DNA from: an uncultured Candidatus Saccharibacteria bacterium
GTDB lineage: Bacteria > Patescibacteriota > Minisyncoccia > Phycocordibacterales > WO2-35-19
NCBI GenBank assembly: GCA_964589445.1
Contig: CAZPQX010000001.1
Location: 110,098-174,097 of the forward strand
DNA: 64,000 nt
Direction: 5' to 3'
The position numbers and the translations under genes were made by a program. Of this stretch, positions 6,660 through 63,094 are shown in pieces. Numbering within the stretch: position 1 is the first letter of the stretch; each line of letters starts with the position of its first letter. The notes beneath the pieces were generated by a model, which saw only the letters and a list, made by a program, of their open reading frames with translations, did no database searches and was not told where the DNA came from.

Positions 6660-6688
6660 TTGACATATCTACCTGTTTGGTATATAAT
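6660..6688 (+). promoter_or_regulatory. Perfect sigma70 consensus promoter TTGACA-17 nt-TATAAT
   Basis: ttgaca(6660-6665) tatctacctgtttggta tataat(6683-6688), then AAAGGAG RBS and ATG at 6706. Confidence 0.5.
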
Positions 6689-6705
6689 ATATAAAGGAGT
6701 TCCCA

Positions 6706-7038
6706 ATGACAATCAATATGAACGGCCTCGCTGAGGCCAAGATGAAGTGGTTTTCGGTCAGGATCTTCCTGATCACACTGATCATGTCCCTTGGTTGGAC
6801 GGGAGCTATGGTAGCTTCCCGCACGAGGGGGACCTACCAGGAGGTAAGTCACGAAGTTGGAATGATCATGGCGATGTTAACTTTAATGATCGTACTTCTG
6901 GCGATCCTCTGCCTCTGTGAGGGCAATTGGCAACCCGACCCCAGACCATGGAGCGACCGGACTTATGTGTCTGGGCGAGCATGGGTCTCCATGGCCCTTG
7001 CCCTCCCAATCACCAATATTTTCCTCCTACTACAGTAG
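6706..7038 (+). CDS. Hypothetical small membrane protein; first gene of the high-GC islet
   Basis: ORF with strong promoter and RBS; 2-3 predicted TM helices; GC content far above flanking host genes. Confidence 0.45.
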   Translation: MTINMNGLAEAKMKWFSVRIFLITLIMSLGWTGAMVASRTRGTYQEVSHEVGMIMAMLTLMIVLLAILCLCEGNWQPDPRPWSDRTYVSGRAWVSMALALPITNIFLLLQ

Positions 7039-7112
7039 GAGCAAACCGCCCCGTTTTAGACAAAGCTCCGTGCTCGTCTAGACGGGGCTTTCTGTTTGCT
7101 ATAATAAAGTAG

Positions 7113-8069
7113 ATGGATAAAAAACTTTTAAATACAGATGCAAACGAGCTCCCCTCTCACCCACTCGGGCAACTCGCACGACAATTCCTCGAATACATAG
7201 AGATAGAAAAAGGCCGCAGCCTGAAGACAGTAGATAATTACAAAAGGTACCTCTCAGTATTCCTACAACACACCAAAGTAGAAGATGCGGGAGATATCAC
7301 AGATTCCCTTGTAAGAGAGTTCCGCCTTTGGCTAAACAGGAAAGTGAGCGGCAACAATACGAAGACTGGCGACACTCTCTCACGCAAAACTCAAAACTAT
7401 TATCTGATAGCTTTGCGCGCCTTCCTCAAATATTTAGCTCGTCAAGAAGTGAAGACGCTGCCCGCAGAGAGGATCGAGCTCGCCAAGACTCCTGAGAGGT
7501 CACTCGACCTCATCACCCAAGACGAGCTAGAGCGCCTGATGGAAGCTCCTAAAGGAGAAGATTTGAAATCAATAAGAGACAGGTCTATCCTCGAGCTCCT
7601 CTTTTCAACTGGCCTCCGCGTCTCCGAGCTTTGCTCGCTGAGGCGCGATATCAACCTCAAGGCAGACGAGCTTTCGATACGAGGTAAGGGTGGCAAAGTG
7701 CGTGTCGTCTTCCTTTCTGAAAAGGCCAAAACTTGCGTCAAAGAATATTTGGCAAAAAGGAAAGATATGGACGACGCGCTTTTTGTAAAAGTAGATACTG
7801 AAAAAAGAGCGACCAAGATAGACCCACTCACCCCGCGCTCAGTAGAGAGGATCATCAAGCACTACGCGATAAAGTCCGGCATTTCCAAAAAAGTGACCCC
7901 TCACGTGATAAGGCACTGCTTTGCTACCGACCTCCTTAGCAACGGTGCTGACCTCCGCTCTGTACAAGCACTCCTCGGCCACGCTCACATAGGCACCACA
8001 CAGGTTTATACCCACGTGACCGACAAGCACCTCAAAGAAATCCACAAAAAATTCCATAACAAACGATAG
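7113..8069 (+). CDS. Tyrosine site-specific recombinase (XerC/XerD/phage integrase family)
   Basis: C-terminal catalytic signature ...TGLRVSEL...HVIRHCFATDLLSNGADLRSVQALLGHAHIGTTQVYTHV (R, H-x-x-R, H, Y); N-terminal SAM-like core-binding domain. Confidence 0.85.
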   Translation: MDKKLLNTDANELPSHPLGQLARQFLEYIEIEKGRSLKTVDNYKRYLSVFLQHTKVEDAGDITDSLVREFRLWLNRKVSGNNTKTGDTLSRKTQNYYLIALRAFLKYLARQEVKTLPAERIELAKTPERSLDLITQDELERLMEAPKGEDLKSIRDRSILELLFSTGLRVSELCSLRRDINLKADELSIRGKGGKVRVVFLSEKAKTCVKEYLAKRKDMDDALFVKVDTEKRATKIDPLTPRSVERIIKHYAIKSGISKKVTPHVIRHCFATDLLSNGADLRSVQALLGHAHIGTTQVYTHVTDKHLKEIHKKFHNKR

Positions 8070-8139
8070 CTTGATTTTTATACTCTTTTGGTGTATAATA
8101 TAATTTAGATTGATCTAACAAAAGAAAGGATGGCCCATC

Positions 8140-8862
8140 ATGGGAAAATCAGGAGTAGAACCGGAGGGGAAACCCTCGGTAGAGGCGATGTGGAAGAACC
8201 AGTCCAACCGCCTCCAACTGGCAAGAAATCAGGCTATGGTCGCTCGCAAGCTGGGCGACTATGCCTCCGCCCACAGCGGAATGCTGTCGGCGTACATCAC
8301 CATCCTCGGGGGCAACCCCGTTGAAGGTCGGCACCCAGTGAAGTTTTTCTTGCTGGCGCTGTGGCATGCATTTTGCATGTCGTGGCGGTTGGAGAAGCTC
8401 AACCACAACCAGCTGGATGTATGGATTTCATTCATACTGAAGCTGCGCGCCAAGATGCCGGCGTTTAAAAGCGTGCTAAATAAGACGCTTATAGACGCGG
8501 CTGTCCGCGAAGTAAGGGGCGCAAACACCAACGGCAAGCATCACCAGCTAGGTCTTGCACTGCTCACCTATGCCGAGGTGTTGCTTGCAACAGTTTACTG
8601 GGGTGATGAAACCCCTACCATAGTTAAAAATAAGATCAGAGTGGCTCTTGATCTGGAGCCACTGATCCGAGAAGAGTCCGAACAACCCCAAGGCCTGCAG
8701 CAGCTTGTCCGGATTCTCCGGAAAGCGGGCGAGCTCTACATCGCCCTTGGAGAACCACTCCAAGGGAAAGCGTACCTCAACTATGCTCTCGTCCTCGCCC
8801 AAGGCGAGGCAGATGCCCCAGACCAAGTCCCCAAGATCAAGGCTATACTGGCCAAGATCTAA
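8140..8862 (+). CDS. Hypothetical protein (240 aa), high-GC islet cargo
   Basis: Long ORF with RBS (aaaggatggcccatcATG) and an intrinsic terminator downstream; its start region is conserved with the gene at 35683. Confidence 0.5.
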   Translation: MGKSGVEPEGKPSVEAMWKNQSNRLQLARNQAMVARKLGDYASAHSGMLSAYITILGGNPVEGRHPVKFFLLALWHAFCMSWRLEKLNHNQLDVWISFILKLRAKMPAFKSVLNKTLIDAAVREVRGANTNGKHHQLGLALLTYAEVLLATVYWGDETPTIVKNKIRVALDLEPLIREESEQPQGLQQLVRILRKAGELYIALGEPLQGKAYLNYALVLAQGEADAPDQVPKIKAILAKI

Positions 8863-8869
8863 AACCCAA

Positions 8870-8911
8870 CCGCCCCTTCGGCACAAAATCCGAAGGAGGC
8901 GGATTTTGTTT
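8870..8911 (+). terminator. Rho-independent terminator
   Basis: ccgccccttcgg ... ccgaaggaggcgg hairpin followed by attttgttt. Confidence 0.5.
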
Positions 8912-8964
8912 ATATAAAGAGGAAAAATTTGAAAAAAAATGGTTTTCGTGTTAATTTTTTGCTC

Positions 8965-11030: not shown

Positions 11031-11384
11031 TTGACAAATACAATATATTTATGTAAAATAAAAAATAGAATGACTATCAACTTCACAATCAAAACCCGCC
11101 AAGGGATGGACTACTCCTTGGAATTTTCATCCGAGATTATTCCCACTGTAGGGAGCACTGTATGTTTCGGATGCGACACCGAGGGAGGCCCCAACGGATA
11201 CTACTTCAGGGTAGAAGAGGTCATATACTACCCCCTTAAGAGAGGCTCCCTAGCTTCCCTTAATCAGGGTAGTATGGCTATACAGGTAATACTCGAAAAC
11301 AATCATCAGAACCTGGGGAAACTTATCAGTCCAAAGAACTTACTCAACCCCGGAAAATGGGAGAAGAGACCTAGGGTGGCCTGA
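11031..11384 (+). CDS. Hypothetical protein (start may be 11070, MTINF...)
   Basis: ORF with upstream TTGACA-17-TAAAAT promoter-like sequence (11030-11059) and a clean terminator; no family recognised. Confidence 0.4.
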   Translation: MTNTIYLCKIKNRMTINFTIKTRQGMDYSLEFSSEIIPTVGSTVCFGCDTEGGPNGYYFRVEEVIYYPLKRGSLASLNQGSMAIQVILENNHQNLGKLISPKNLLNPGKWEKRPRVA

Positions 11385-11411
11385 TACGGTATTATCCTGT
11401 AATGATACCAA

Positions 11412-11441
11412 GGCCGGCGAGCAGTCGCCGGCCTTTTTTAT
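11412..11441 (+). terminator. Rho-independent terminator
   Basis: ggccggcgagcagtcgccggcc followed by tttttta. Confidence 0.6.
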
Positions 11442-11502
11442 TTTGCAAAATATGCTATAATTATATGGTAAAAGCTTATCAAAAATTAATAAAAATACAC
11501 AT

Positions 11503-27651: not shown

Positions 27652-28125
27652 CTACCCTCCCTTCGAAACCATAAATTTTGCGACAGCTTTTTCAACCAGA
27701 CCCCTGCTGCCGAATTTGAAAGTATGGACATCCCCTGCTGCCATAACAGGATTACTCTCCGGCTCAGGGATAAGTACGAAGGAGTTAGCGGAAACAACCT
27801 CAACACTCCAAACCACCGAAAGAGTCTTTGTGTGCAAAACCTGGACAACAGATAGGTTTTTCCGCCCAACCTCCTCTGTTTTATAAATCACATGGAAAAA
27901 CTCTCCCATACCCCATTCTCTTAGAGCTTCTTCATAAAAACCAACTAAGGCTCTAATAGAGAGATAAATCTCAAGTGCTGGTTGCATAGCAGTCTTTATC
28001 TGCTTAGTATTGTCAGGTTTGTTGCGAAACTTGGACCAAAGGGCCAAAAGATCCCTATCTGCCCAACCCCTGTCATTCATGAGGGCTTTTAATACCCCCC
28101 AGGCAGTAACCAAAAGAGACAGCAT
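27652..28125 (-). CDS. Hypothetical protein (157 aa), high-GC islet
   Basis: GGAGG RBS 8 nt upstream of the ATG; GC content well above host; no family recognised. Confidence 0.45.
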   Translation of the reverse strand: MLSLLVTAWGVLKALMNDRGWADRDLLALWSKFRNKPDNTKQIKTAMQPALEIYLSIRALVGFYEEALREWGMGEFFHVIYKTEEVGRKNLSVVQVLHTKTLSVVWSVEVVSANSFVLIPEPESNPVMAAGDVHTFKFGSRGLVEKAVAKFMVSKGG

Positions 28126-28500: not shown

Positions 28501-31242
28501 CTAAAGAGAGTATTTTTTCATTACCAACTCTTCGATCTCTTGGCGAGGTCGACCATACTTTTCATAAGACAGATTTTTCAAATGTTCTACCATGAGAGTG
28601 TCGCCCTTTTGAGGCGGCAAAACTTCCATATTGAAAGGTTTGGCTGGTTTTCCATTTACCAAAAGTCTTAGGTAAGCGTTGCGATTGTCTATATTCATCA
28701 GGTCACTCGCGGCAAAAATCGGAGCAAATTGTTTTTCTAAATATTCACTGTCTTCTGCCCCGACACGGAAGGCACAAATGGAGCCGACATTGCCGAAAAC
28801 TGCGTCTCTTATACCCTCTTCTATTTGAGCTATAAATTGGTGAGCGATATTGAGTGAGAGTTTGTACTTCCTAGCTTCAGAGAGGATAGTGGAAATGGAG
28901 TCGGTGGTGATATTTTGGAATTCGTCGATATATAAATAGAAAGGTGGCTGATGGGAGCCGAGCGAGTCAGCTCTCGAAAGTGCAGCCATGAGTATCTTGC
29001 CTACCAATATAAGCCCGATGAGGTTGGCATTTATGTCCCCTAGCCTACCTTTAGAAAGATTTACTAGGAGGATTTTTTTGTTATCCATGATGTCGCGGAA
29101 ATTGAAAGAAGATTTTTCTTGAGCGATGACGGGTCGCATGATTTCGTTGGCGAGGAAGACATCAAACTTGTTGGTCACATATTGCACATAGTTGGCGAGA
29201 CCCTGCTCACCGCTAGTCTTTTCTGCATTTACCCAAAACTGTTTTACTAAAGGATTTTTACATTTAGAAACCTTATAATCTCTATAAGTTTTGTCAGAAA
29301 GCACGCGCGACATGTCGACGAGAGTGTTGCCTGAGGCTGGGTCTTCCATCACGAGGAGTGCTGAGTTCCTAAAATACTGCTCGAAGGCTGGACCCATCGA
29401 CTCTGGCACATTGCCATAAAGCTTCCTGAAAATACTAAAGAGTTCGTTGACTACAAAAGTTTTTTGTTCTGGGAATCTTTCGTCATATTCGAGCATGTTG
29501 AGAGCCATCGGCCTCTCTGTAAAGCCTGGGTCGAAATATATGACATCATCCATCCTTTCCTTTGGGACATTTGCGAGCACATCTTGGATATCAGAGCCAT
29601 GAGGGTCGATCATACAAACACCATTACCCATTTTTATATCTTGGATAATCATATTTTTGAGCAAAGTAGACTTACCTGTGCCAGTCTGGCCTATACAATA
29701 AAAGTGTCGTAAGCGATCGTCTTCGGACATCTTGATTTGAGTCTCTACACTCCTATGTTTGTTTACCCCAAGCACGATACCTTCACCTGAAATATCGAGA
29801 GGTGCCTGTGCAGTCGCGGCTCTCGACTGACGGAGGCCTTCAGAGACTTTGAGGGCGCTAGTTTGGAAGTGCATAAAAGAAGTAATCTCTCTTATGTTCA
29901 TGGGCAAAAAAGAATCCTGATCAAAAATCCTAAAACTAAAATTCTTTACCAAGTTTCTCAAATTGCCTTTTTCTGACTTATGCCACTTTAGGGAATTGCC
30001 GAGAGTATTGTTGAACTGATTGAAACTGGACTTGATACTCTCCAAGATTTCTTCTGCCTCTTCTTGGGTAGCGGATGAAGCGAGCACTCTCAGGTTGCAG
30101 CGTACTATGGGTGTGGTTATCTTCCTGCCTATTTCTTCAATTACAGTTTGGTCTATCGGCTCTGGCTTCTTTGGCTCTTCGCCCTCTTTCTCTTTTGGTT
30201 TGGAAGGTCCAAACATACCCTTGAGCGTGTGGAATACTTCGCCTCCTACACTATCAGGAATATCGAGCGCTTCGCTTAGTGGTGCGCCTGCCTTTATTTT
30301 ATCTAAAGCCTTCCTATATTTTTTGATATACCTATCCCCGACTGGCGACCAAAGTAGCTGTATGGCAGCTCCTTCACCATCGCGATTTACTTTTGAAAAA
30401 CCAGAAATAATAAGGTTGAGCGGGTCATGACTAAAGCTTTCATAAGTCTTGAGTGGATAGATTGGATTTTTCTCAAAGAGTGCATAGCTGGCTGCAGTGT
30501 GGCCTGTCTCGTTGAAGATATTGTAGTCGTCGTTTTTTTCTTCTATTTTTGCATTATGGAAAATCGAGAGAATAGACTTTTCAAAAAGACCCTTCCTAGA
30601 TAAAGGCACGGCCACATAAAAAACTACTTCCTTAGAAAAGTTGGAGTTGGCTATCTCGAGTGATATCCAATTTTCTTCACCTTCCTTTGAAACCGAGAGC
30701 ATGCTCGCATAAAACTGCTCCATGCCAGAAATAATTTCTTCCAGCTTTACGTTTTCCTTTCCTTCTTCTTCTTTTATCAAAACTTGGTACAAGACCATGT
30801 TCATAATCTTCCACATCTTCTCTTTTTCACTCACGCCGGGGATGGTGAAGCCCTCTCTTATGTACTCAGAAACAAAACGATGGAAGTCGTCTGTGATATG
30901 AAAGTTTGAAAGCTTCTCGACGGCAGAAAGAGCATTTTTGATACCCTTCTCTTTGGCGAGCTTCACGAGCTCACTCACCTGCTTGTCGTGACTCTCGGGA
31001 GATAGTTTGACTATGAAATTTTCAACCTCATCTTGTGAAGCGTGGAATTCTGGGTGCACCACTTCTTCTGACTTCACAGTTTTGTATTCGGCGAGTGTCT
31101 CTCGTGCTAGAAAAACCGGGTCTTTGTTTATACCCACCTGCTCTAGAGCTTTTTCTTTTTCGGCGACAAGCCCACGCAAATAAGAAACCTCCTCCTCTGG
31201 GTTTTTGAACGGGGCTTCGGGCATTTTAAATTTGTAGTCCAT
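28501..31242 (-). CDS. Soluble TraG/VirD4/TrwB-family (FtsK/HerA superfamily) P-loop ATPase, 913 aa
   Basis: Walker A FYCIGQTGTGKSTLLKNMI...CMIDPHGS; TraG-D_C-like Walker B region PFYLYIDEFQNITT...ARKYKLSLNIAHQFIAQ; no N-terminal TM helices. Confidence 0.65.
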   Translation of the reverse strand: MDYKFKMPEAPFKNPEEEVSYLRGLVAEKEKALEQVGINKDPVFLARETLAEYKTVKSEEVVHPEFHASQDEVENFIVKLSPESHDKQVSELVKLAKEKGIKNALSAVEKLSNFHITDDFHRFVSEYIREGFTIPGVSEKEKMWKIMNMVLYQVLIKEEEGKENVKLEEIISGMEQFYASMLSVSKEGEENWISLEIANSNFSKEVVFYVAVPLSRKGLFEKSILSIFHNAKIEEKNDDYNIFNETGHTAASYALFEKNPIYPLKTYESFSHDPLNLIISGFSKVNRDGEGAAIQLLWSPVGDRYIKKYRKALDKIKAGAPLSEALDIPDSVGGEVFHTLKGMFGPSKPKEKEGEEPKKPEPIDQTVIEEIGRKITTPIVRCNLRVLASSATQEEAEEILESIKSSFNQFNNTLGNSLKWHKSEKGNLRNLVKNFSFRIFDQDSFLPMNIREITSFMHFQTSALKVSEGLRQSRAATAQAPLDISGEGIVLGVNKHRSVETQIKMSEDDRLRHFYCIGQTGTGKSTLLKNMIIQDIKMGNGVCMIDPHGSDIQDVLANVPKERMDDVIYFDPGFTERPMALNMLEYDERFPEQKTFVVNELFSIFRKLYGNVPESMGPAFEQYFRNSALLVMEDPASGNTLVDMSRVLSDKTYRDYKVSKCKNPLVKQFWVNAEKTSGEQGLANYVQYVTNKFDVFLANEIMRPVIAQEKSSFNFRDIMDNKKILLVNLSKGRLGDINANLIGLILVGKILMAALSRADSLGSHQPPFYLYIDEFQNITTDSISTILSEARKYKLSLNIAHQFIAQIEEGIRDAVFGNVGSICAFRVGAEDSEYLEKQFAPIFAASDLMNIDNRNAYLRLLVNGKPAKPFNMEVLPPQKGDTLMVEHLKNLSYEKYGRPRQEIEELVMKKYSL

Positions 31243-31313: not shown

Positions 31314-31508
31314 TTACATAGGCATCGAGTTGTTGCTCTTTGGCTTCAAAGAAACCAAAGCAGAAACACCTACGAGTATGTAAACTATTCTTGGGATCCA
31401 TCCCATCATGCTCATGCCAAGGAAACCAAACAAATCGTTTTGGAAGAGTCCTACTAGGAGCCAGTTGATGCCCCCTATGATGAGAAGCCAAAATGCTATT
31501 TTGCTCAT
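31314..31508 (-). CDS. DUF378-family small membrane protein (start at internal MSKIAFWLL...)
   Basis: MSKIAFWLLIIGGINWLLVGLF matches the DUF378 signature (LLI.GG.NW.LVG). Confidence 0.55.
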   Translation of the reverse strand: MSKIAFWLLIIGGINWLLVGLFQNDLFGFLGMSMMGWIPRIVYILVGVSALVSLKPKSNNSMPM

Positions 31509-31671
31509 AAAAATTTGAGTTAGTGTTTTAATAAAAACGACCACTTTTAATACATCTAAATTATACGACACAATAGTTTTGAAATAAAACCAAAAATTGT
31601 GTATTATTCTGCTTGTCCGCTAAATGCGTTTGGTTTGGTAGGCTTGCCCCGCGAAGCTTTAGCGTAGTGGG

Positions 31672-31850
31672 GGCCCTATCGTAAACGGTTAGTCGCCTCC
31701 TCGGCGACCCGCCGAGGAGGCGGGGACGGAGCCTTCTCAAGACTTAAAGAGGGGTTGAATTGCGAAAGCTTGGAGCAATTCAAAGCCGGACTGAGCGGAG
31801 GCGAAGGAGGCGGGGTCGTGGAAATTTTTAGCAAAAAATTATCTGTGACC
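31672..31850 (+). pseudogene. tRNA-Glu-like unit 1, disrupted by GC-rich hairpin insertions in the D-loop and T-loop regions (probably non-functional)
   Basis: Starts ggccctatcgtaaacggttag, then a 31-nt perfect hairpin (cgcctcctcggcg accc gccgaggaggcg), then ggacggagccttctcaagactt (CUC anticodon loop) and a disrupted T arm; no matching 3' acceptor strand. Confidence 0.3.
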
Positions 31851-31887
31851 GATTCCCAAATCGAACGTTGTGTAGTAAAAATATATG

Positions 31888-32050
31888 GCCCTATCGTCTA
31901 ACGGTTAGGACGGAGCCTTCGAGAGGTGAGGTTGGGATATGGGACCCAACCGCAAGACCTTTTGAGAATTTTTATGAGTAGAACGAAATAAAAAGCCCAA
32001 AAGGTGTACAGCGACTGTAAGTCGGAAAATTCGGGTTCGATACAATTAAA
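31888..32050 (+). pseudogene. tRNA-Glu-like unit 2: first 33 nt identical in register to the intact tRNA (through U33), then about 115 nt of unrelated GC-rich sequence and a T-arm remnant
   Basis: ggccctatcgtctaacggttaggacggagcctt | cgagaggtgaggttggg... ttcgggttcgatac; no 3' acceptor complement. Confidence 0.3.
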
Positions 32051-32054
32051 TAAT

Positions 32055-32126
32055 GGCCTCATCGTCTAACGGTTAGGACGGAGCCTTCTCAAGGCTTAAA
32101 TCGGGGTTCGATTCCCCGTGAGGTCA
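32055..32126 (+). tRNA. tRNA-Glu (anticodon CUC), 72 nt, CCA not encoded
   Basis: Cloverleaf by hand: acceptor ggcctca/tgaggtc (one G-U), D stem gtct/ggac, anticodon stem gagcc/ggctt with loop ttCTCaa, T arm cgggg-ttcgatt-ccccg. Confidence 0.75.
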
Positions 32127-32160
32127 CATTCAACAGCTAGCACGAGAAGCGTGCGAAATA

Positions 32161-32859
32161 ATGCTTCTTTACTGCCGAAGTTTTGTACATAATTACATTA
32201 TGAAGGAACACTTTGACAAAAATAAACGCCAGATATTGATGACAATTACACATCTGAATCGTTTTCATCTGCGCGCAGTAAGAAAAGATACTAAAGTAAG
32301 TGAAATTAGTTTAGATAATATTTTTGCAAAAATTATTATAGGGCTCTGGGTATCTCTATTAGAGGTTGAGTATGAATTATTAAACAGTAAAGTTGGATTA
32401 AAAAAAGAAAAAGATTCTTTAAAAGATAAATATTTGAAATTGTTAGATAGATTGTTTCAAGAAAAGTATTTAAATAATAGCGGAAAAGATATTAACCAAA
32501 GGAATTTAGGTCACGATAGTTATCATCGTTACAAAACTCTTAATGACATTATAAATAATGAATTAGCTAATTATATTGAGATTAGAAATAAAATAGCTCA
32601 TGGTCAATGGCATGTTGCTTTTTCAGATTCCGGAAAGGTTAATAATGACATAACCGCACATGTATGGAAATTATCTAAAAAAGATCTCCTCATTCTGAAA
32701 ACACTTGTCATAAATATACCTGCAATTTTAAATATTCTTTTTCAAAGCAAGAAAACTTTTGAAAGAGATTTTAATAAAATAATAAATAAAGTCTTATTAT
32801 CAAAAGAAGATAATGAAATCAGGTTTGGCTGGCTAAAAAATAAAGCTAGGAAAATATGA
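32161..32859 (+). CDS. Rx4H (HEPN-type) motif protein A, Abi-like; possible start at 32200 (MKEHFDK)
   Basis: ...ELANYIEIRNKIAHGQWHV... contains R-N-K-I-A-H in an alpha-helical context, resembling the RNxxAH signature of Abi_2/AbiD-type HEPN proteins; AT-rich accessory DNA next to a tRNA. Confidence 0.5.
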   Translation: MLLYCRSFVHNYIMKEHFDKNKRQILMTITHLNRFHLRAVRKDTKVSEISLDNIFAKIIIGLWVSLLEVEYELLNSKVGLKKEKDSLKDKYLKLLDRLFQEKYLNNSGKDINQRNLGHDSYHRYKTLNDIINNELANYIEIRNKIAHGQWHVAFSDSGKVNNDITAHVWKLSKKDLLILKTLVINIPAILNILFQSKKTFERDFNKIINKVLLSKEDNEIRFGWLKNKARKI

Positions 32860-33515
32860 GCCTTCTAGAAAATAAACCCAATAGTAAAGAGGAAAAAGTT
32901 CTAGAACTTTTCTATAATAGATTTTACGATTTGTACGAGGAATTATATCAAGAGGAGTTTTTTAAGAGAGAAGAATCCTACAGATTCTATCGAATACGAG
33001 AAATCTTTTCTGTATACAAAGAACTACTAGGGTATGAACCAATCCAATACTATATTAAATATGTTAAAAATGGGGGTAGACCACCTCTTGAGGGTTTAAT
33101 TGTTGATGATCTTTTTAGTTTTGTAAGAAACCTACTTCTACACTTTCCAGTTTTTGATAAATGGGAAGATGTTTACATAAGTAAAGATTTAGCTACTTGG
33201 AATAAAGTAGGTACTATTCATAAGTTTCTATTAAAAAGCAGTAAAATAAAAATCGATGATAGTGGAGTTATAAAATATAGGATATGGGAAAAGAGCAAAA
33301 AGCTAATGACTTATATTCAATTCCACTTACCAGAAGAATACAACGATAGTAGAAAAATATTCCTTAAAGAGGTTATTTCTGAAACAGATGGTATCAAACT
33401 TTGCATATCTTTTATGAAGCAAGTTCTAGATACACAAGTTCATTCTAATACTGAGGAGGATATTGTAATAATGTCTCAAGTTTACATGCCAATTCCTGAA
33501 ACTAGAAATCCATAG
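32856..33515 (+). CDS. Rx4H (HEPN-type) motif protein B, translationally coupled to protein A (ATGA overlap)
   Basis: ...DLFSFVRNLLLHFPVFDKWE... contains R-N-L-L-L-H; 4-nt overlap with the upstream gene. Confidence 0.5.
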   Translation: MSLLENKPNSKEEKVLELFYNRFYDLYEELYQEEFFKREESYRFYRIREIFSVYKELLGYEPIQYYIKYVKNGGRPPLEGLIVDDLFSFVRNLLLHFPVFDKWEDVYISKDLATWNKVGTIHKFLLKSSKIKIDDSGVIKYRIWEKSKKLMTYIQFHLPEEYNDSRKIFLKEVISETDGIKLCISFMKQVLDTQVHSNTEEDIVIMSQVYMPIPETRNP

Positions 33516-33679
33516 TCGCACGGGAAGGGTCATTAGAAACTTAATAACGTTACTCAGAATAACCTTACTGGACAACAAATCAGACAGGTTCTATCTCGAG
33601 AAGGCTCACCTTTTAGAGAGCGCTCGGGAAGGATATGAAAATTGGAGACTTTTTTCATTAAAAATGTATAATTTATTAA

Positions 33680-34303
33680 ATGGAATTTGTCTATATAGGT
33701 TTTGGATGGCTACTGGGTCTTTTAGCCCCAGCAACCACAAAACGGATTGCGGATCATTATGAAAAACAGAATCTTGAAAAGATTATTCTTAATGACATAA
33801 AAGATTTAAAGAAAAGACTCGGGGGAATACCCTATCTTGTATACCCTAAGCACGGAAAATTAAATCAAGAGATTTTTAATTGGATTAAAAGTAATTCTAG
33901 TATTGACTTCGATACCGGATTAACGCAACTTGCTGAACAAGGATTAACTGAGACCCAGATAATAAATCATCTAAATACAATAGGACAACAAGATGTAACA
34001 ACAACATACTTTAAGAAAGTAAACCTTTTTGCGACAGACTCTCATCTTACTAAATTAAGTTTAATTGAAAATAATCTAATGGAGAAAATTTTAGAGATAA
34101 AATTCCATGTACAAGCACTAAATGAAGACATCGATAGTTTTAGGGATGATCTAAAAATGACGTTTATGCCAGGAATCACTCCACAAAATCATATAATAGT
34201 ATCGGTTGAAATTGATAAAAAGAGTTTAATGATTGCAAAAAAGTCTATGTTTATAGTTGATAAAATTAATGAAATTCTATTCTCTCGAAAAGGGTCGAAA
34301 TAA
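33680..34303 (+). CDS. Hypothetical membrane-anchored protein (1 N-terminal TM helix), third gene of the accessory island
   Basis: MEFVYIGFGWLLGLLAPATT... TM helix, then a soluble domain with no recognised family; TGTATAAT box at 33657-33664. Confidence 0.45.
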   Translation: MEFVYIGFGWLLGLLAPATTKRIADHYEKQNLEKIILNDIKDLKKRLGGIPYLVYPKHGKLNQEIFNWIKSNSSIDFDTGLTQLAEQGLTETQIINHLNTIGQQDVTTTYFKKVNLFATDSHLTKLSLIENNLMEKILEIKFHVQALNEDIDSFRDDLKMTFMPGITPQNHIIVSVEIDKKSLMIAKKSMFIVDKINEILFSRKGSK

Positions 34304-34376
34304 TATACTTAAAAAACTTTAAATAGCCTTACGGAACAATGAACCCTGAGGCTCTATCTTGCTATACGCCCACAAA

Positions 34377-34405
34377 TTGACAATTACTTAATTTAGGAGT
34401 ATAAA
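34377..34405 (+). promoter_or_regulatory. Sigma70-like promoter TTGACA-17-TATAAA, followed by a 15-aa uORF (34422-34469, MKKLLGKDVCVYEKK) whose TGA overlaps the ATG of the downstream gene
   Basis: ttgaca(34377-82) attacttaatttaggag tataaa(34400-05); AGGAG RBS; ATGA coupling at 34466-34469. Confidence 0.35.
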
Positions 34406-34465
34406 AAAATAGGAGTACCTCATGAAAAAACTACTAGGTAAAGATGTTTGTGTATATGAGAAAAA

Positions 34466-35035
34466 ATGAATACGACTAATAGAACACAACAGCTCTGCGA
34501 CGCCCTCAAACAAGGCGCACCCTGGGGTTCACTCGCAAGATTCCTCGACACGATCAATTTGATCGAAGAATTGGAACAATTGGCCCCTATACTCCATGGA
34601 TCAAATAAAGCGGATCTAGCCGAGTACTACAAGGAGAACCTCCTTCGGTGGCCTGACCCCCAATTGCCGGCAGGGTTCAGCGAGAAGTACCCCCTGTTCT
34701 CTGCACGGCTAGATACACCAGGAAAAATTCGCATTCTTTTGCGGGGTGCATACTACCGCGATGTCCCCCCAGAAATTATGGGCGATGTTTTCGAAGAGAT
34801 CATCCGCCGTCACGAGGTGGAAGGCGAGAGAAAAATCGTTTATCGCAACTACCGCAACACTACGCGCGATCGCGCTTTGCGAATCGTATACCACACCCAG
34901 CTCCCATACTGGACCCTGACGGAACTGGCCCTGAATGGAATGCCCAACGTCGGCATTTCTACCAAAGAAGGTCTCTTCCTCGATTGGAGAACAAAAGAGG
35001 AGAGACTCGCAGCCGGCGAAACCGTGTATTCATAG
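34466..35035 (+). CDS. Hypothetical protein (189 aa), high-GC islet
   Basis: Abrupt GC jump exactly at the start codon; terminator with the same 3' end (ggcggattttgtt) as the 8140 gene. Confidence 0.5.
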   Translation: MNTTNRTQQLCDALKQGAPWGSLARFLDTINLIEELEQLAPILHGSNKADLAEYYKENLLRWPDPQLPAGFSEKYPLFSARLDTPGKIRILLRGAYYRDVPPEIMGDVFEEIIRRHEVEGERKIVYRNYRNTTRDRALRIVYHTQLPYWTLTELALNGMPNVGISTKEGLFLDWRTKEERLAAGETVYS

Positions 35036-35042
35036 TCAATTA

Positions 35043-35090
35043 GCCGCCCACAACAGGACAAGATCCGTTGGAGGGCGGATTTTGTTATCT
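35043..35090 (+). terminator. Rho-independent terminator
   Basis: gccgccc...ggagggcgg hairpin + attttgttatct; the 3' half is nearly identical to the terminator at 8890-8911. Confidence 0.45.
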
Positions 35091-35328
35091 AAATTTTCCA
35101 TAAGAATAGTTTATTCCTAAATAAACTTATTTTCAAAAACCTACCCCCCCATTGACTTCCCCATCATTTGAAGGCCGGCGGCTTTTTTTAAAAAATTCCA
35201 AATATCCCCTTCAAAAATTCAACAAATTTGTGGAGAAGAAATAATAATCAAAATTCTCTTTACAAAGTTTAAAAATACTTGCAAAACTGTATTGGCCTGA
35301 TAAGATCTGCAACGGAAAGGAGAAAGCC

Positions 35329-35553
35329 ATGAAGGTTTGCCCACATCGTGGTGAAAAATTCTCTAAGCGCAGGTGGGATAGAGAGACCAACCCACCCAAG
35401 ATGCGCTGTGCATCGTGCAGTGTCACTCTATTTTCCAGAGAAGGAATCCTAGACACCTGGGAATTTCTTCATCCTCCCGACGAAGGAGGGATAGGGAAAA
35501 AGCTGAATAAGCAAAAACCCAAAGAAGAACCTTCGTTCGGGGAGGAATACTAG
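35329..35553 (+). CDS. Small zinc-ribbon-like protein (74 aa)
   Basis: GGAGAAAGCC-ATG RBS; CPHRGEKF...CASCS Cys/His pairs. Confidence 0.4.
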   Translation: MKVCPHRGEKFSKRRWDRETNPPKMRCASCSVTLFSREGILDTWEFLHPPDEGGIGKKLNKQKPKEEPSFGEEY

Positions 35554-35682
35554 AACCTAAGTCTCCCTCACCCCCCTCAGCCGCCGCCCCACCACGGGCG
35601 ACCTTTCTTTTTCTCCTCTTTTTATCGCCTTGACACACCATATTTAATATTGTAATTTCTTAAAAGAAAGGCTTTTCATCAT

Positions 35683-35970
35683 ATGGGGAAATTAGGAGTT
35701 GAGCCTCAGACCGAGGCCATGATCCTGGAGAACTTAGGTAAGTCTCTCCAGACACTTCGAGATGAAAATCCCGAAGCCACCTTCGACAAAGAATTGGTCG
35801 AGGCGATTTGCTTAGAGCGAGTGTTCCCTCATCAAGCAGCAGGCCTGCTTGGAATGACAGAAGACGCCTCGCTCGACTTGTTTTTTGGGCTGTTTCGCCA
35901 AGAGTCGTCGCGACAGGAGTTCTTCTCGTTCTACGTGGTGCGGTGGAAGCAGAAGCACCAAGAACACTAA
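35683..35970 (+). CDS. Hypothetical protein (95 aa), high-GC; N-terminus MGKLGVEPQTE similar to the 8140 gene (MGKSGVEPEGK)
   Basis: About 45 nt spanning RBS and start are conserved with 8100-8160 (aaaagaaagg....catcatgggaaaatcaggagt.ga.cc). Confidence 0.4.
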   Translation: MGKLGVEPQTEAMILENLGKSLQTLRDENPEATFDKELVEAICLERVFPHQAAGLLGMTEDASLDLFFGLFRQESSRQEFFSFYVVRWKQKHQEH

Positions 35971-36069
35971 AACGAACCCCTCGCCCGCCGCGCCCACAAG
36001 GCCGGCGGCTTTCTTTTTGTTAAAATTTTAAGTCCCCCGCCCCAACCCACAATTTGCTATAATATACTC

Positions 36070-36402
36070 ATGAATCAAAATACTTTTAAATTTAAAAAAT
36101 GGTTTGGGAGGGTTTTAGGAGCTATGTTAGTTTTTGTACCAAATTTTGTCTATGCATTTTCTTTTGAATTCGTACAACAAAGCAACTACTCCGCTAGTAG
36201 CCCAGCAGGGCTCATCTCGGGGCTGTGGCATGGCATGATAGCCCCTTGGTCTCTCATCGCAAGATGGTTTTTTAGTGACATTGGGCTATATGCCTTTTCC
36301 AACACGGGCTGGTTTTATGATGCTGGCTTCCTCATTGGAGCTGGTGGCTCTATCCCTCTCGGCTGGCTCGCAGCCATAATCGCTACAATAGCAATGTTTT
36401 AA
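36070..36402 (+). CDS. Hypothetical membrane protein
   Basis: 3 predicted TM helices, low-GC host-like composition. Confidence 0.4.
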   Translation: MNQNTFKFKKWFGRVLGAMLVFVPNFVYAFSFEFVQQSNYSASSPAGLISGLWHGMIAPWSLIARWFFSDIGLYAFSNTGWFYDAGFLIGAGGSIPLGWLAAIIATIAMF

Positions 36403-36406
36403 ATAT

Positions 36407-36811
36407 ATGAACGAAACCTATATCTACAACGACCTGGTCAAGCCATTTTGGTCTCCTCCATCATGGATATTTGGTCCAGTGTGGAGCGTTTTGTATTTTA
36501 TAATAGCAATATCTTTCAGTACCATATTTTATAAAGCAATCAAAAAGGAAATCCCTTTCGCAACAGCCCTACCCTTTATACTCAATCTACTTTTCAACTT
36601 TTTGTTTACCCCGCTCCAATTTGGAATACAAAACAACATCTTGGCTTCTGTAGACATATTGCTAGTACTCGCGACCCTTGTCTGGGCACTCCTCACTGTG
36701 TATAAAAAGCACAAAAACCTACGCTGGATAGCCTACGCCAACATACCCTATTTGCTTTGGGTGACTTTCGCGACTTTTTTACAACTCACCATCACTTATT
36801 TGAATATGTAA
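36407..36811 (+). CDS. TspO/MBR-family (tryptophan-rich sensory protein) membrane protein
   Basis: FWSPPSWIFGPVWSVLYFIIAIS...LNLLFNFLFTPLQFG matches the TspO signature. Confidence 0.65.
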   Translation: MNETYIYNDLVKPFWSPPSWIFGPVWSVLYFIIAISFSTIFYKAIKKEIPFATALPFILNLLFNFLFTPLQFGIQNNILASVDILLVLATLVWALLTVYKKHKNLRWIAYANIPYLLWVTFATFLQLTITYLNM

Positions 36812-36856
36812 AAAAGCTTGTAATAAAATATGATAAAATATTTTTATTAAAATAAT

Positions 36857-37180
36857 TTGAAAGGTATGACAAATTCAAACCCAGCTATTGAAGCACTCAA
36901 AAGAGAGATCGAAAAAGAAGTACAAGAACTTAAAGAAAAACAAAACGAACAAAGGAAAAAAGACTCTGAGTTATCACGCAAAAAACAAGAATACGAGCGC
37001 AAACAAGCTGAGGCTGACAAACTAAAAAAGGAGCTTGAAGATTTGGAAAAGGAAGTAAACGATATTAAGTCAGATATACAGAAGCTAGAACAAGAAAGGA
37101 CGAACAAAGAATCTTCTTTAAGGGAGATGCAGCAAGAACTTGCAAATTCAATAAAAGAATCTGAAAAAGACAAAAAATAG
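36857..37180 (+). CDS. Coiled-coil hypothetical protein
   Basis: Continuous E/K/Q-rich heptad pattern over about 100 aa. Confidence 0.4.
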   Translation: MKGMTNSNPAIEALKREIEKEVQELKEKQNEQRKKDSELSRKKQEYERKQAEADKLKKELEDLEKEVNDIKSDIQKLEQERTNKESSLREMQQELANSIKESEKDKK

Positions 37181-37501
37181 GTAAAATTTTTAGACAAAGA
37201 AAAAGACGCTGTAGTGTTGCAAGTCACCGCAGCGCCTCGTCGAAAGTTTCCGTACTTATCCCCCGGGGAGGGGGCCCTAATGACTACCAGTCCTAGTCTG
37301 ATAGGCACCAGAAACATTCGAACAAAATCAAATCTAAACTATTTATTTAAAAAGTCAACAAAAATAAAGAGGGGTGTGGTACAGGGACAGAAACCACGAC
37401 CCCTCAGTGCTCACTTACTCTAACCTCCCACGAGGGTCGAGTGGCCACCATGGCTGAATGGCTGTGAGCTATATTGAGTATTAAATATAATAGATTTTTT
37501 G

Positions 37502-57519: not shown

Positions 57520-57702
57520 CTAAGGAGCGCCGAGCCACTGGCATAAATCGTGCCAGATGTAGTCTGTTCCGGGGGATACGGCTAGCGCCAATAGCCCCCC
57601 GAAAATGAAAACGAACAACCCTTCCCGCCGCCCTGACATGGCCAGGGCAAACGAGGTGGCGGAAGACACAAAAAGTGCGGACCTAAGGAGAATCATCTCC
57701 AT
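57520..57702 (-). CDS. Small GC-rich membrane protein (60 aa)
   Basis: Strong RBS GGAGGTGAACC-ATG; two hydrophobic segments; GC-rich hairpin terminator downstream (gctcggc...gccgagc). Confidence 0.35.
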   Translation of the reverse strand: MEMILLRSALFVSSATSFALAMSGRREGLFVFIFGGLLALAVSPGTDYIWHDLCQWLGAP

Positions 57703-57784
57703 GGTTCACCTCCACTAATATATTATATCACAAAGTAGGAAAAAAGCAAGGATTTTTGGATTTAGGCAGATGGCCTAAAAACCT

Positions 57785-62227: not shown

Positions 62228-62822
62228 GGATAGGTTTACACTCAAGGCTGGTATACTTATGTATATATGCCAGAGAAGAGAACCTATGCTGATCGTGCTG
62301 AATATTTGCGAGAAGCCGTCAAAAAAAGAAGGAAAAAACTTCGAGAAATGGCTCGCGAATATGGTGGAGGTAAGTGTGCAATATGTGGTTATAAAAAATC
62401 ACCAAGAGCACTAGCCTTTCATCATCTCAACCCACAAGAAAAAGATTTTGGACTTTCCGTTAAAGGATTGACCAGATCCTGGGAAAAGATGAGGAAAGAA
62501 ATAGATAAATGTATCTTGCTTTGCGCAAACTGCCACGCAGAAGTGCACGATGGTATTACGCAGCTTCCCGAGGTAACTCGGGTTGAAAAACGAGGTGAAT
62601 TCGGGGAAGCCCTTCGTGGGTAATCCCGAGCCAAGACCAGCACTAATTTTGGTTTTTAATTTTTATAAATCAAAATTAGTGCTGGTAAGGTGTAGAGACT
62701 ATCCGTAATTGGAGTACTTTTCGGACTAAAAGTCCGGATGGGAAGCGCCTCGCCACTTATATCTCACAGAGATTTTAAGTGGATGATATAGTCCATCCCT
62801 CTTAGAAATTTGAGGATAAATG
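62228..62822 (+). mobile_element. Group I intron (about 595 nt) within the tRNA anticodon loop
   Basis: Catalytic-core hallmarks near the 3' end: R-like tttcggactaaaagtccgg and S-like gatgatatagtcc (P7 pairing gacta/tagtc); intron ends with G before exon 2; encodes an HNH ORF. Confidence 0.6.
62267..62623 (+). CDS. HNH homing endonuclease encoded within the group I intron
   Basis: GGGKCAICGYKK...LAFHHLNPQEKDFG...LLCANCHAEVHDG (Cys pairs, HH and N...CANCH HNH motif). Confidence 0.75.
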   Translation: MPEKRTYADRAEYLREAVKKRRKKLREMAREYGGGKCAICGYKKSPRALAFHHLNPQEKDFGLSVKGLTRSWEKMRKEIDKCILLCANCHAEVHDGITQLPEVTRVEKRGEFGEALRG

Positions 62823-63002
62823 TAACTCGTTGGTCGTAGGTTCGAATCCTACCCGCGGAGCAACAAACACGAAGTCCTGATGCGTAGCATTAGGGCTTTT
62901 GTGTTTGTATCTGCCTGTAGGATTCGAACCGAAGGTGCCTGTTTTTAAGGAATAAGATGACTATAAAAACAGAGCATCTCGACCGGAAGAATGGAGGGAG
63001 AG

Positions 63003-63022
63003 GCGAATCCTACCCGCGGAGC
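63003..63022 (+). repeat. Direct repeat of the tRNA 3' end (T-loop half + acceptor + CCA), 160 bp downstream of the tRNA
   Basis: gaatcctacccgcggagcca vs tRNA 62843-62861 gaatcctacccgcggagca; an inverted partial copy (gtaggattcgaacc) lies at 62917-62930. Confidence 0.5.
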
Positions 63023-63094
63023 CATCAAAATGACCTTGTTCTGCAGGGTCATTTTGTTTGACCCAGATAGGGTTCAGAACCAATTTTTGTTATA

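Follow-up and report, generated by a model that had tools for sequence, protein, structure and literature searches.

Introduction

Among the described systems closest to the locus analyzed here, the morons of phages (for example HK97 gene 15) are single extra genes that possess their own promoter and terminator, deviate in guanine-plus-cytosine (GC) content, lie between unrelated genes and spread horizontally (PMC3594210). In Patescibacteria, islands and individually transferred genes make up to 13% of the genome, and most of the individually transferred genes detected came from other Patescibacteria (mSystems 2025, PMC12455944). Here, we examine a stretch of 64,000 nucleotides (nt; the window) from an uncultured Candidatus Saccharibacteria bacterium of the Patescibacteriota (assembly GCA_964589445.1, contig CAZPQX010000001.1, positions 110,098 to 174,097 of the forward strand), in which short GC-rich segments with orphan genes, hereafter called cassettes, lie between housekeeping genes. 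Two modules recur in cassettes whose genes are otherwise unrelated: a 5′ block that spans the ribosome binding site (RBS) and the first codons of the genes g8140 and g35683, and a 3′ element behind g8140 and g34466. We consider it rather probable that the segments are horizontally acquired, moron-like and self-contained expression units from the flexible gene pool of the Paceibacteria.

Like morons, the units of the window have predicted promoters (at 6660, 8071, 11031 and 34377) and terminators of their own as well as a deviant composition. In contrast to morons, they are located in the chromosome between housekeeping genes (rpsO, tig, clpP, ftsI, tRNA-Glu) and not within a phage or prophage, and no phage homologues were found for them, neither as PHROG matches nor as relatives in viral contigs. 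Moreover, a conserved terminator element and an N-terminal peptide recur in cassettes whose genes are unrelated, a kind of sharing that is not known from morons. The likeness to the islands and transferred genes of Patescibacteria lies in a transfer that would take place mostly within the phylum and in one cluster that abuts a tRNA gene; compared with those islands (2.7–45 kb, PMC12455944), however, the window units are far smaller, consist of orphans throughout, and are defined by their transcription-unit anatomy together with the shared 5′ and 3′ modules.

Results and Discussion

Composition and Expression Signals

The cassettes stand out from their surroundings in composition (Table 1). In comparison with the 41 long backbone genes of the window (GC 40.4%, standard deviation 2.7; GC fraction at third codon positions, GC3, 0.371, standard deviation 0.064), five genes reach z scores of 4.1–5.9 for GC and 3.3–4.7 for GC3, at a mean GC of the whole window of 40.4%. 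On this quantitative check of GC and GC3, the composition is not uniform, as the first-pass annotation had supposed from the sequence; its range of 55–60% GC for the segments was slightly high (51–56%), and from its list of segments those at 6.6–8.9, 34.47–36.05 and 57.5–57.7 kb hold, whereas the one at 27.6–28.5 kb contains only a weak outlier (gene 27652–28125; GC 44.9%, z = 1.7 for GC and 1.1 for GC3). The Xer-type recombinase gene between g6706 and g8140 is moderately raised (GC 48.0%, GC3 0.545), and the unit at 11031–11445, whose gene has a GC3 of 0.571, was absent from that list. Because the arrangements around both parts of the finding recur in independent assemblies of several sequencing runs, the GC-rich segments are not assembly chimeras.

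Cassettes and backbone also differ in their signals for translation. Pairing with the anti-Shine–Dalgarno (SD) sequence at −6 kcal/mol or better is found for 6 of 7 cassette leaders and for 4 of 40 backbone genes (Fisher p = 1.3e-4): Six of the seven leaders contain AAGGAG, GGAGG or GAAAGGA, whereas the leaders of the backbone genes are A/T-rich and almost devoid of SD complementarity (median −0.2 kcal/mol). The best promoter matches between 1 and 20 kb are those of the cassettes (12/12 at 6660, 11/12 at 11031 and 10/12 at 8071), the one at 6660 in front of g6706 being the sole 12/12 sigma-70 match in the first 20 kb. At the other end of the units, the predicted terminator hairpins fold at −20 to −30 kcal/mol (z = −4 to −5.6), among them a strong hairpin after g6706 at about 7047–7097 (−30 kcal/mol, z = −4.7). 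The g6706 protein itself has a sub-threshold match in Pfam only, and none in PHROG or NCBIfam.

Two further observations concern translation starts. Several genes look leaderless with a TATAAT 7–10 nt before the ATG, namely xer, the 36070 gene and the gene at 28501–31242; the xer mRNA is probably leaderless, judging from the TATAAT at 7099–7104. Upstream of g34466, the stop codon of a small upstream open reading frame (uORF; MKKLLGKDVCVYEKK) overlaps the start of g34466 as ATGA, and as g34466 lacks an SD of its own, this overlap suggests translational coupling.

Table 1. Coordinates, predicted signals and base composition of the features in the window (aa, amino acids; ORF, open reading frame; fractions such as 12/12 are matches to the promoter consensus).
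Feature	Position	Strand	Signals and remarks	GC (%)	GC3	z (GC3)
Sigma-70 consensus promoter of g6706	6660–6688	+	TTGACA-17-TATAAT, 12/12
g6706, GC-rich orphan, 110 aa, predicted membrane protein	6706–7038	+	AAGGAG SD at 6694–6699	52.6	0.667	4.6
Xer-type tyrosine recombinase, 318 aa	7113–8069	+	Pfam Phage_integrase, 1.5e-45
Promoter-like site of g8140	8071–8099	+	TTGATT-17-TATAAT, 10/12
Shared leader, copy 1	8120–8162	+	SD-type AAAAGAAAGG and codons for MGKSGVEP
g8140, 240-aa orphan, all-alpha helical-repeat (P0001 family)	8140–8862	+		54.8	0.643	4.3
Conserved terminator element, copy 1	8866–8918	+	Hairpin 8870–8902, then ATTTTGTTT
Autonomous unit with 104-aa orphan gene (11070–11384)	11031–11445	+	TTGACA-17-TAAAAT promoter, 11/12; AAGGCCGGCG hairpin terminator 11410–11435
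tRNA-Glu(CTC), borders variable slot with the 34.4–36.0 kb cassettes	32055–32127	+
Promoter of g34466 and 15-codon uORF (34422–34469)	34377–34469	+	TTGACA-17-TATAAA; uORF with own AGGAG SD
g34466, 189-aa orphan (P0002 family)	34466–35035	+		51.8	0.579	3.3
Conserved terminator element, copy 2	35040–35095	+	Follows a gene unrelated to g8140
Orphan 3′ half of g35683-type terminator	35171–35189	+	AAGGCCGGCGGCTTTTTTT, without 5′ arm; probably remnant
74-aa Cys-rich orphan gene	35329–35553	+	AAGGAG SD
Shared leader, copy 2	35662–35705	+	AAAAGAAAGG and codons for MGKLGVEP
g35683, 95-aa orphan (P0004 family)	35683–35970	+	Own terminator at about 35983–36020	51.4	0.615	3.8
g57520, 60-aa GC-rich orphan ORF (57520–57702)	57520–57749	−	TTGCTT-17-TATAAT (57749–57722), GGAGGTG SD	56.3	0.672	4.7

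Orphan Protein Families

The orphan cassette proteins have no match at threshold in Pfam and none in PHROGs, NCBIfam or PADLOC. That the genes of the 240-aa and 189-aa families are real follows from their homologue clusters, from invariant motifs in the 240-aa family and from confident AlphaFold2 (AF2) models. In a collection of 5.8 billion proteins, the 240-aa family of g8140 comprises, apart from the query, 34 clusters of homologues whose identity reaches down to 35% and which have the invariant motifs AHSxMLSxY, L(N/S/T)HNQLD, RILRK and GE(A/S)xxxDQ, and the 189-aa family of g34466 comprises 40. For the 95-aa family of g35683, 3 close and 28 distant homologues were found besides the protein P0083, and some homologues of this family form the C-terminal part of ~265-aa proteins. 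Every source name on proteins of the orphan families is Candidatus Paceibacterota or Pacebacteria.

The AF2 model of g8140 (mean predicted local distance difference test, pLDDT, 89.7) shows 12 helices in a TPR/14-3-3-like solenoid with residues 1–9 disordered; a fold search with it yielded weak generic helical-repeat matches only (TPR/14-3-3-like, template modeling (TM) score about 0.43). The model of g34466 (pLDDT 93.2, predicted TM score 0.87) has no Foldseek match in the PDB (best E = 2.3), and the 189-aa family may, as far as this model goes, represent an undescribed fold.

The Shared 5′ Block

The first-pass annotation had pointed to about 45 nt common to the leaders of g8140 and g35683, and this likeness is real and unique in the window: The 10-mer AAAAGAAAGG is identical at 8120 and 35662 with no other exact copy on the + strand, and over the first 23 coding bases the two agree at 19, with only one of the four differences not being a synonymous third position. 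A search with the 23-nt coding pattern and at most 3 mismatches returned both exact copies plus one unrelated 3-mismatch match at a chance expectation of 0.07. It is thus not a generic strong RBS that precedes many host genes, as the host genes mostly lack an SD.

What is conserved in this block is, however, not a boundary of insertion, as had been proposed, but an SD followed by a translated peptide. Most members of the 240-aa family start with MG(K/Q)(S/A)GVEP, which is succeeded by a linker of variable length and the conserved body, whereas other members begin directly at M(T)LQDAMW. Since the codons of MG(K/Q)xGVEP vary synonymously across loci (GGA/GGG, GTA/GTT, GAA/GAG and all four Pro codons) and the L024 ortholog of g8140 has a TTG start, the conservation acts, by sequence comparison, at the level of the peptide and not of a DNA site. 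In the 95-aa family, the peptide occurs in the closest relatives only (MGKLGVEP, MGQSGTEP); P0083 starts with MTKAEINP, and distant members have nothing similar. Overall homology of the two families was considered and rejected: In a profile comparison, they align over the first 9 residues only. The 5′ block is, on these alignments, a short N-terminal module common to two unrelated proteins, the sharing of which could stem from recombination of 5′ ends or from convergence. As to its role, one might guess at a flexible N-terminal tag that serves a partner, a protease or an export route; N-myristoylation-like and prepilin-like readings of MGKxGVEP can presumably be set aside on the motif rules.

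The Shared 3′ Element

Behind g8140 and g34466, the first-pass annotation had seen terminators with a common 3′ half. The likeness, unique in the window, in fact extends over the whole ~50 nt. In a covariance model built from the same 8 copies that it scores, these copies obtain 60–78 bits (g8140 copy 76, g34466 copy 62), and the best other match in 332 kb obtains 19 bits. The ~43-nt element lies 3′ of 240-aa-family genes in L024, L027, L003, L029/L030 and L031 and additionally 3′ of two genes unrelated to this family, the 226-aa gene in L029 and g34466 in the window; in its full 43 nt, it recurs in five other distinct metagenomic sequences or metagenome-assembled genomes (MAGs). As there are 2 copies in the 64-kb window and 8 in the 332 kb, each of them immediately after a cassette gene, a dispersal of the type of repetitive extragenic palindromes (REP), miniature inverted-repeat transposable elements (MITE) or uptake signals is not seen. 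A reading as DNA uptake signal was likewise rejected, as the motif is not over-represented; the 10-mer CGGATTTTGT was encountered once outside the element copies.

The element has the form CCGCC(C) / variable inner stem / ACAAAATCC loop / GGAGG(G)CGG-ATTTTGTT and corresponds to a rho-independent terminator as predicted from sequence, that is, a GC-rich hairpin with an immediate U-tract downstream of the stop codon, which would terminate transcription. The hairpin at 8870–8902 folds at −22.4 kcal/mol (z = −5.3) and is followed by AUUUUGUUU; the one at 35044–35078 folds at −20.1 kcal/mol (z = −4.2). All copies except that of L031 have a hairpin of −19.6 to −23.5 kcal/mol (z = −4.1 to −5.3), then AUUUUGUU. 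Hardly any variation is seen in the outer stem CCGCC/GGCGG, in the loop ACAAAAUCC or in the tailed 3′ arm GGAGG(G)CGGAUUUUGUU, while the inner stem varies yet pairs (CUUCGG/CCGAAG, CACC-CGG/CCGGUG, CAAC-AGG/CC-GUUG). Moreover, the loop and the first bases of the 3′ arm (ACAAAAUCCG) are exactly complementary to the end of the stem and the U-tract (CGGAUUUUGU). This gives an alternative hairpin, mutually exclusive with the first one, which presents the SD-like AAGGAGG as its loop; it is invariant among the copies, and covariation neither supports nor refutes it.

Between loci whose proteins agree in 46–60% of residues, the identity of the copies is 76–98%. Excluding the two closest pairs, the copies are 76–91% identical, compared to 46–63% of residues and 33–42% of third-codon positions in the corresponding coding sequences (CDS); on this measure, the element evolves more slowly than the gene before it. 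It has no Rfam match in 8060–8960 at E up to 1, the region 31500–36100 matched tRNA only, and no relative was found in viral contigs (IMG/VR). Since homologues of the 189-aa family elsewhere carry unrelated terminators, the element does not belong to that family; by its distribution, it appears as a property of the transcription unit of the 240-aa family across genomes and as common to cassettes of the window genome and of L029. The proposal that it marks a boundary of insertion is not borne out: It is a predicted intrinsic terminator inside the unit, present once per cassette and without a flanking duplicate.

In enterobacteria, conserved mRNA 3′ ends give rise to small RNAs derived from the 3′ untranslated region (UTR). 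The element is comparable in that a terminator-proximal segment shows stronger conservation than the wobble positions in the CDS before it; it differs in being essentially a hairpin only, recognized here from its sequence. We know of no RNA chaperones or small RNAs described for the Patescibacteria phylum. We infer that the extra conservation of the element may reflect a sequence-specific function. An extension of this thought, which we regard as rather unlikely, would make it a sequence-specific recognition module by which the members of a cassette family or regulon in Paceibacteria are set apart. Such a module is suggested by its being better conserved than the protein it follows, by the exact complementarity between the invariant loop and its own U-tract, and by the presence of a 240-aa-family gene in both genomes where the element follows an unrelated gene. 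Possible readers would be the 240-aa protein (as one half of a cognate protein–RNA pair that marks other genes, for example g34466 and the L029 226-aa gene), another RNA-binding factor or a mobilization machinery.

Two other repeated motifs lie close to cassette genes. A third GC-rich hairpin motif that had been reported as recurring is the 19-nt AAGGCCGGCGGCTTT, which is indeed found at 35171 and 35998 with 95% identity; at 35998 it constitutes the 3′ arm of the g35683 terminator, whereas the copy at 35171 does not fold stably and, having no partner 5′ arm either, looks like a remnant. A second intergenic element beside 240-aa-family genes, absent from the window, consists of a GCCCCGC/GCGGGGC hairpin followed by TTCCAyCA...GAAGAAT...GGGAG and is located upstream of the gene in L003 (7069–7130) and L026 (before 3055) and downstream in L008 (8346–8405). 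In the related contigs L029 (1409–2148) and L031 (5756–6253), different genes come after the 240-aa cassette: In L029 it is the 226-aa gene, which ends in a second copy of the conserved terminator element, and in L031 an unrelated 165-aa gene; the same DUF378 gene then follows in both. The 226-aa gene we take, by eye only, to be acyltransferase-like.

Genomic Contexts

The genome behind the window is a member of the Patescibacteria of Paceibacteria/Zambryskiibacteria type. Its trigger factor (Tig) and the one in a Candidatus Zambryskiibacteriota MAG have 62% identity, and the order tig-rsmE-clpP-rny is common to the window and three Zambryskiibacteriota genomes. In the three closest Tig-syntenic relatives, no xer/8140 block is found within 6 kb upstream of tig. 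The 11070 unit is absent from L014 (rsmE-clpP) and L013 (clpP directly after tig), neither of which has room for it, and L012 contains an unrelated 161-aa gene between rsmE and clpP. The order xer-8140-terminator-tig is kept in L024/L025, with Xer 93–95% (tblastx) and the 240-aa protein 80% identical. Elsewhere, the 240-aa family changes its neighbors: It is located between xer and tig in the window. In L003 (GCA_036517695), it precedes the ATP synthase operon; in L006 (GCA_040384425), its neighbor is a GDSL lipase gene, and in L008 (GCA_964483435), def/fmt and priA enclose it. Of the 189-aa family, single genes are found in three other genomes, one between relA and topA, one close to RNR and one close to htrA.

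The clearest comparison is offered by the metagenome contig L027, which shares the backbone on both sides of tRNA-Glu with the window at 67–72% nt identity (ftsI/mraW on one side, DUF378 and a 913-aa VirD4-like gene on the other). Between ftsI and tRNA-Glu, L027 has a permease gene, a cassette of the 240-aa family (51% GC in a contig of 39% GC) and a NUDIX-like gene; in the same interval, the window has TspO, a membrane protein, the 35683, 35329 and 34466 genes and a low-GC island. The presence of the 240-aa family at two loci in two related genomes shows relocation of the cassette. Compared over window 32127–37500 and L027 3050–6410, the two slots have no gene in common inside, and the slot beside tRNA-Glu is hypervariable.

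The low-GC island (32161–34303), which the first-pass annotation did not list, consists of three adjacent orphan genes with 27–31% GC (z = −3.5 to −4.9) that match nothing in Pfam, PHROGs, NCBIfam or PADLOC; it lies directly 3′ of tRNA-Glu, and the high-GC cassettes come right after. The tRNA gene (32055–32127), which borders the slot at 32.1–36.0 kb, is preceded by two degenerate partial copies within 31660–32050, at 31724–31761 (87%) and 31885–31920 (94%), which carry GC-rich palindromes such as CGCCTCCTCGGCG/CGCCGAGGAGGCG and of which neither is called as tRNA by ARAGORN or Rfam. The ~450-bp stretch with these copies is absent in L027, where tRNA-Glu abuts the DUF378 gene. Within the slot, neither an integrase nor a downstream repeat of the tRNA 3′ end was found.

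With regard to composition, members of the 240-aa family have 49–54% GC in hosts of 39–43% GC (L003, L026, L027, L029, L031). The composition of a distant homologue in a contig of 60% GC (L033) matches that of its host, the most distant homologue checked (L006) has host-like GC, and so have the copies in the high-GC hosts L033–L035; in Paceibacterota contigs of 53–56% GC, the 189-aa family matches its hosts as well. For the 95-aa family, P0083 is located in L011 (345–9700) at the edge of a block with a large serine recombinase, a ParB-N6/N4 methylase, a LexA-cytosine methylase fusion and DUF1508, a block that is likely an integrated element. Apart from the cassettes, the window contains a group I intron match at 62535–62815 (Rfam RF00028, 64.5 bits, E = 4.7e-14), and part of this match with its downstream region (62720–63080) is 88–94% identical to the start of L003, another Paceibacterota genome.

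Origin of the Cassettes

Deviant composition, use of SD sequences, patchy and lineage-restricted families, differing genomic contexts and the relocation in a relative together argue for foreign, mobile cassettes, and the first-pass idea of a foreign cassette family is supported in the form of moron-like single-gene units. In this explanation, the GC-rich segments would be horizontally acquired accessory genes, each of them a self-contained unit of a sigma-70-type promoter, an SD, one orphan ORF and a strong GC-rich intrinsic terminator, that have been dropped singly or in small clusters between housekeeping genes. Their likely source would be other Paceibacteria with genomes of 53–60% GC, in which the same families occur at native composition, and a possible route would be natural transformation followed by recombination at permissive intergenic sites; both direction and route are what we infer from these patterns.

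Several points weigh against this explanation or limit its reach. The synteny xer-8140-tig is kept in L024/L025 at 82% nt, and this particular insertion must therefore date back some time. Homologues with only 46–60% identity still have the GC excess, which recent transfer does not easily explain; either repeated transfers or selection that holds GC high is required. Around neither island was a target-site duplication or an attachment (att) repeat found, and most copies have no mobility gene beside them. The promoters and terminators are consensus matches and thus predicted, and as the backbone starts were taken as the longest ORFs, some of the absent SDs may reflect mis-called starts. Finally, a fixed-column alignment of the 8 copies gives no significant column-wise covariation for the terminator stem, as the register of the inner stem shifts and the copies are only eight.

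How such genes came to be where they are could also be explained by recombinases. The cassettes would then be integron-like, with the 3′ hairpin as an attC-like or Xer/dif-like site of the adjacent tyrosine recombinase, which is suggested by the position of that recombinase directly upstream of g8140 in the same GC-elevated block, by one ORF with exactly one conserved imperfect palindrome at the 3′ end of each cassette, and by an invariant 10-bp inverted repeat (ACAAAATCCG / CGGATTTTGT) around a 7–8-bp spacer, which has the geometry of a simple core site of tyrosine recombinases. We judge this highly unlikely, and the integron proposal of the first-pass annotation finds no support: The recombinase is of Xer type (NCBIfam XerC 243, XerD 241 and XerA 235 bits) and scores far below the cut-offs of the integron integrase models (TIGR02249, 128 bits with a cut-off of 265; equivalog NF011946, 79 bits with a cut-off of 435). 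Elsewhere, a recombinase is missing from the neighborhood of most family copies, and none of the cassettes is flanked by a second or hybrid copy of the element. The two window copies have spacers of unequal sequence and length (AAGGAGG vs TTGGAGGG), so that these two could not recombine together. An R″/R′ core pair of attC (RYYYAAC...GTTRRRY) is lacking, as the element ends in GGCGGATTTTGTT and there is no complementarity between CCCAAC in its 5′ flank and GTTTAT on the 3′ side; a dif-bounded Xer element (IMEX) is not seen either, with one palindrome per cassette and no repeat flanking the 6.6–8.9 kb block. Unlike integron cassettes, which as a rule are promoterless, the genes here come with a promoter-like site and an SD each. 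They are scattered (6.7, 8.1, 11.0, 34.5, 35.7 and 57.5 kb) and not arrayed, and a U-tract comes after the hairpin, as ordinary terminators have it. The element presumably does not resemble the dif site of E. coli. Prophage or plasmid remnants, that is, true morons or cargo left after a mobile element decayed, are an unlikely source too. Own promoter, own terminator and deviant GC are the architecture of morons (PMC3594210), P0083 stands beside the recombinase and methylase genes of L011, and the 32–36 kb cluster abuts a tRNA gene with partial duplicates; yet no orphan cassette protein matches a PHROG family, no relative of either main family, of the leader or of the terminator was found in IMG/VR, and the two main proteins have no match in GenBank phages or PLSDB plasmids (tblastn), a weak negative, as mobile elements of this phylum are poorly sampled there. 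Structural or replication genes are not found nearby, and in other genomes the genes stand singly between housekeeping genes.

A further explanation dispenses with transfer: Vertically inherited, lineage-specific genes could have their GC, SD and terminators maintained by selection for expression level or mRNA stability, with the shared motifs as regulatory signals. It would account for the GC excess in many divergent homologues in low-GC hosts, which is expected under selection and would be erased by amelioration after a single transfer, for the synteny kept in L024/L025, and for the purifying selection on peptide and terminator. We nonetheless hold it to be fairly improbable, because the genomic position differs among genomes, including two relatives with the same backbone, both families are scarce and of patchy occurrence (34 and 40 clusters among the 5.8 billion proteins), GC is host-like in L006 and in the high-GC hosts L033–L035, and the highly expressed backbone genes rpsO, tig and clpP are not GC-rich. 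Virtually no credence is left for generic similarity, in which the leader would be a strong RBS and the terminators any two GC-rich hairpins with a U-tract. While AAAAGAAAGG is purine-rich and SD-like, GGCGG with a T-run is common in terminators and a 16-nt pattern with 3 mismatches gave no more hits than in 3/100 shuffles, this reading is already contradicted by the leader pattern search with its low chance expectation, by the covariance scores (60 vs 19 bits against ordinary terminators, with the whole 43-nt element in five other sequences) and by the SD comparison, in which backbone genes mostly lack any SD and the exact 10-mer precedes only g8140 and g35683.

Conclusion

The ultra-small Patescibacteria possess streamlined genomes whose accessory genes are almost all unannotated, and the window shows how plug-and-play units can be recognized among them: by a promoter, an RBS and a terminator that the units bring into a genome whose native genes mostly do without an SD. 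If the 3′ element is only a terminator and the genes are ordinary transfers, the locus is a tidy instance of horizontal transfer that holds no surprise. Orphan genes that are otherwise unrelated are linked by two short conserved modules, the N-terminal peptide and the terminator-like element, and both are handles for finding more of the flexible gene pool. The same conserved modules provide handles for choosing expression signals when engineering these bacteria and for testing a regulatory or mobilization role of the 3′ element.

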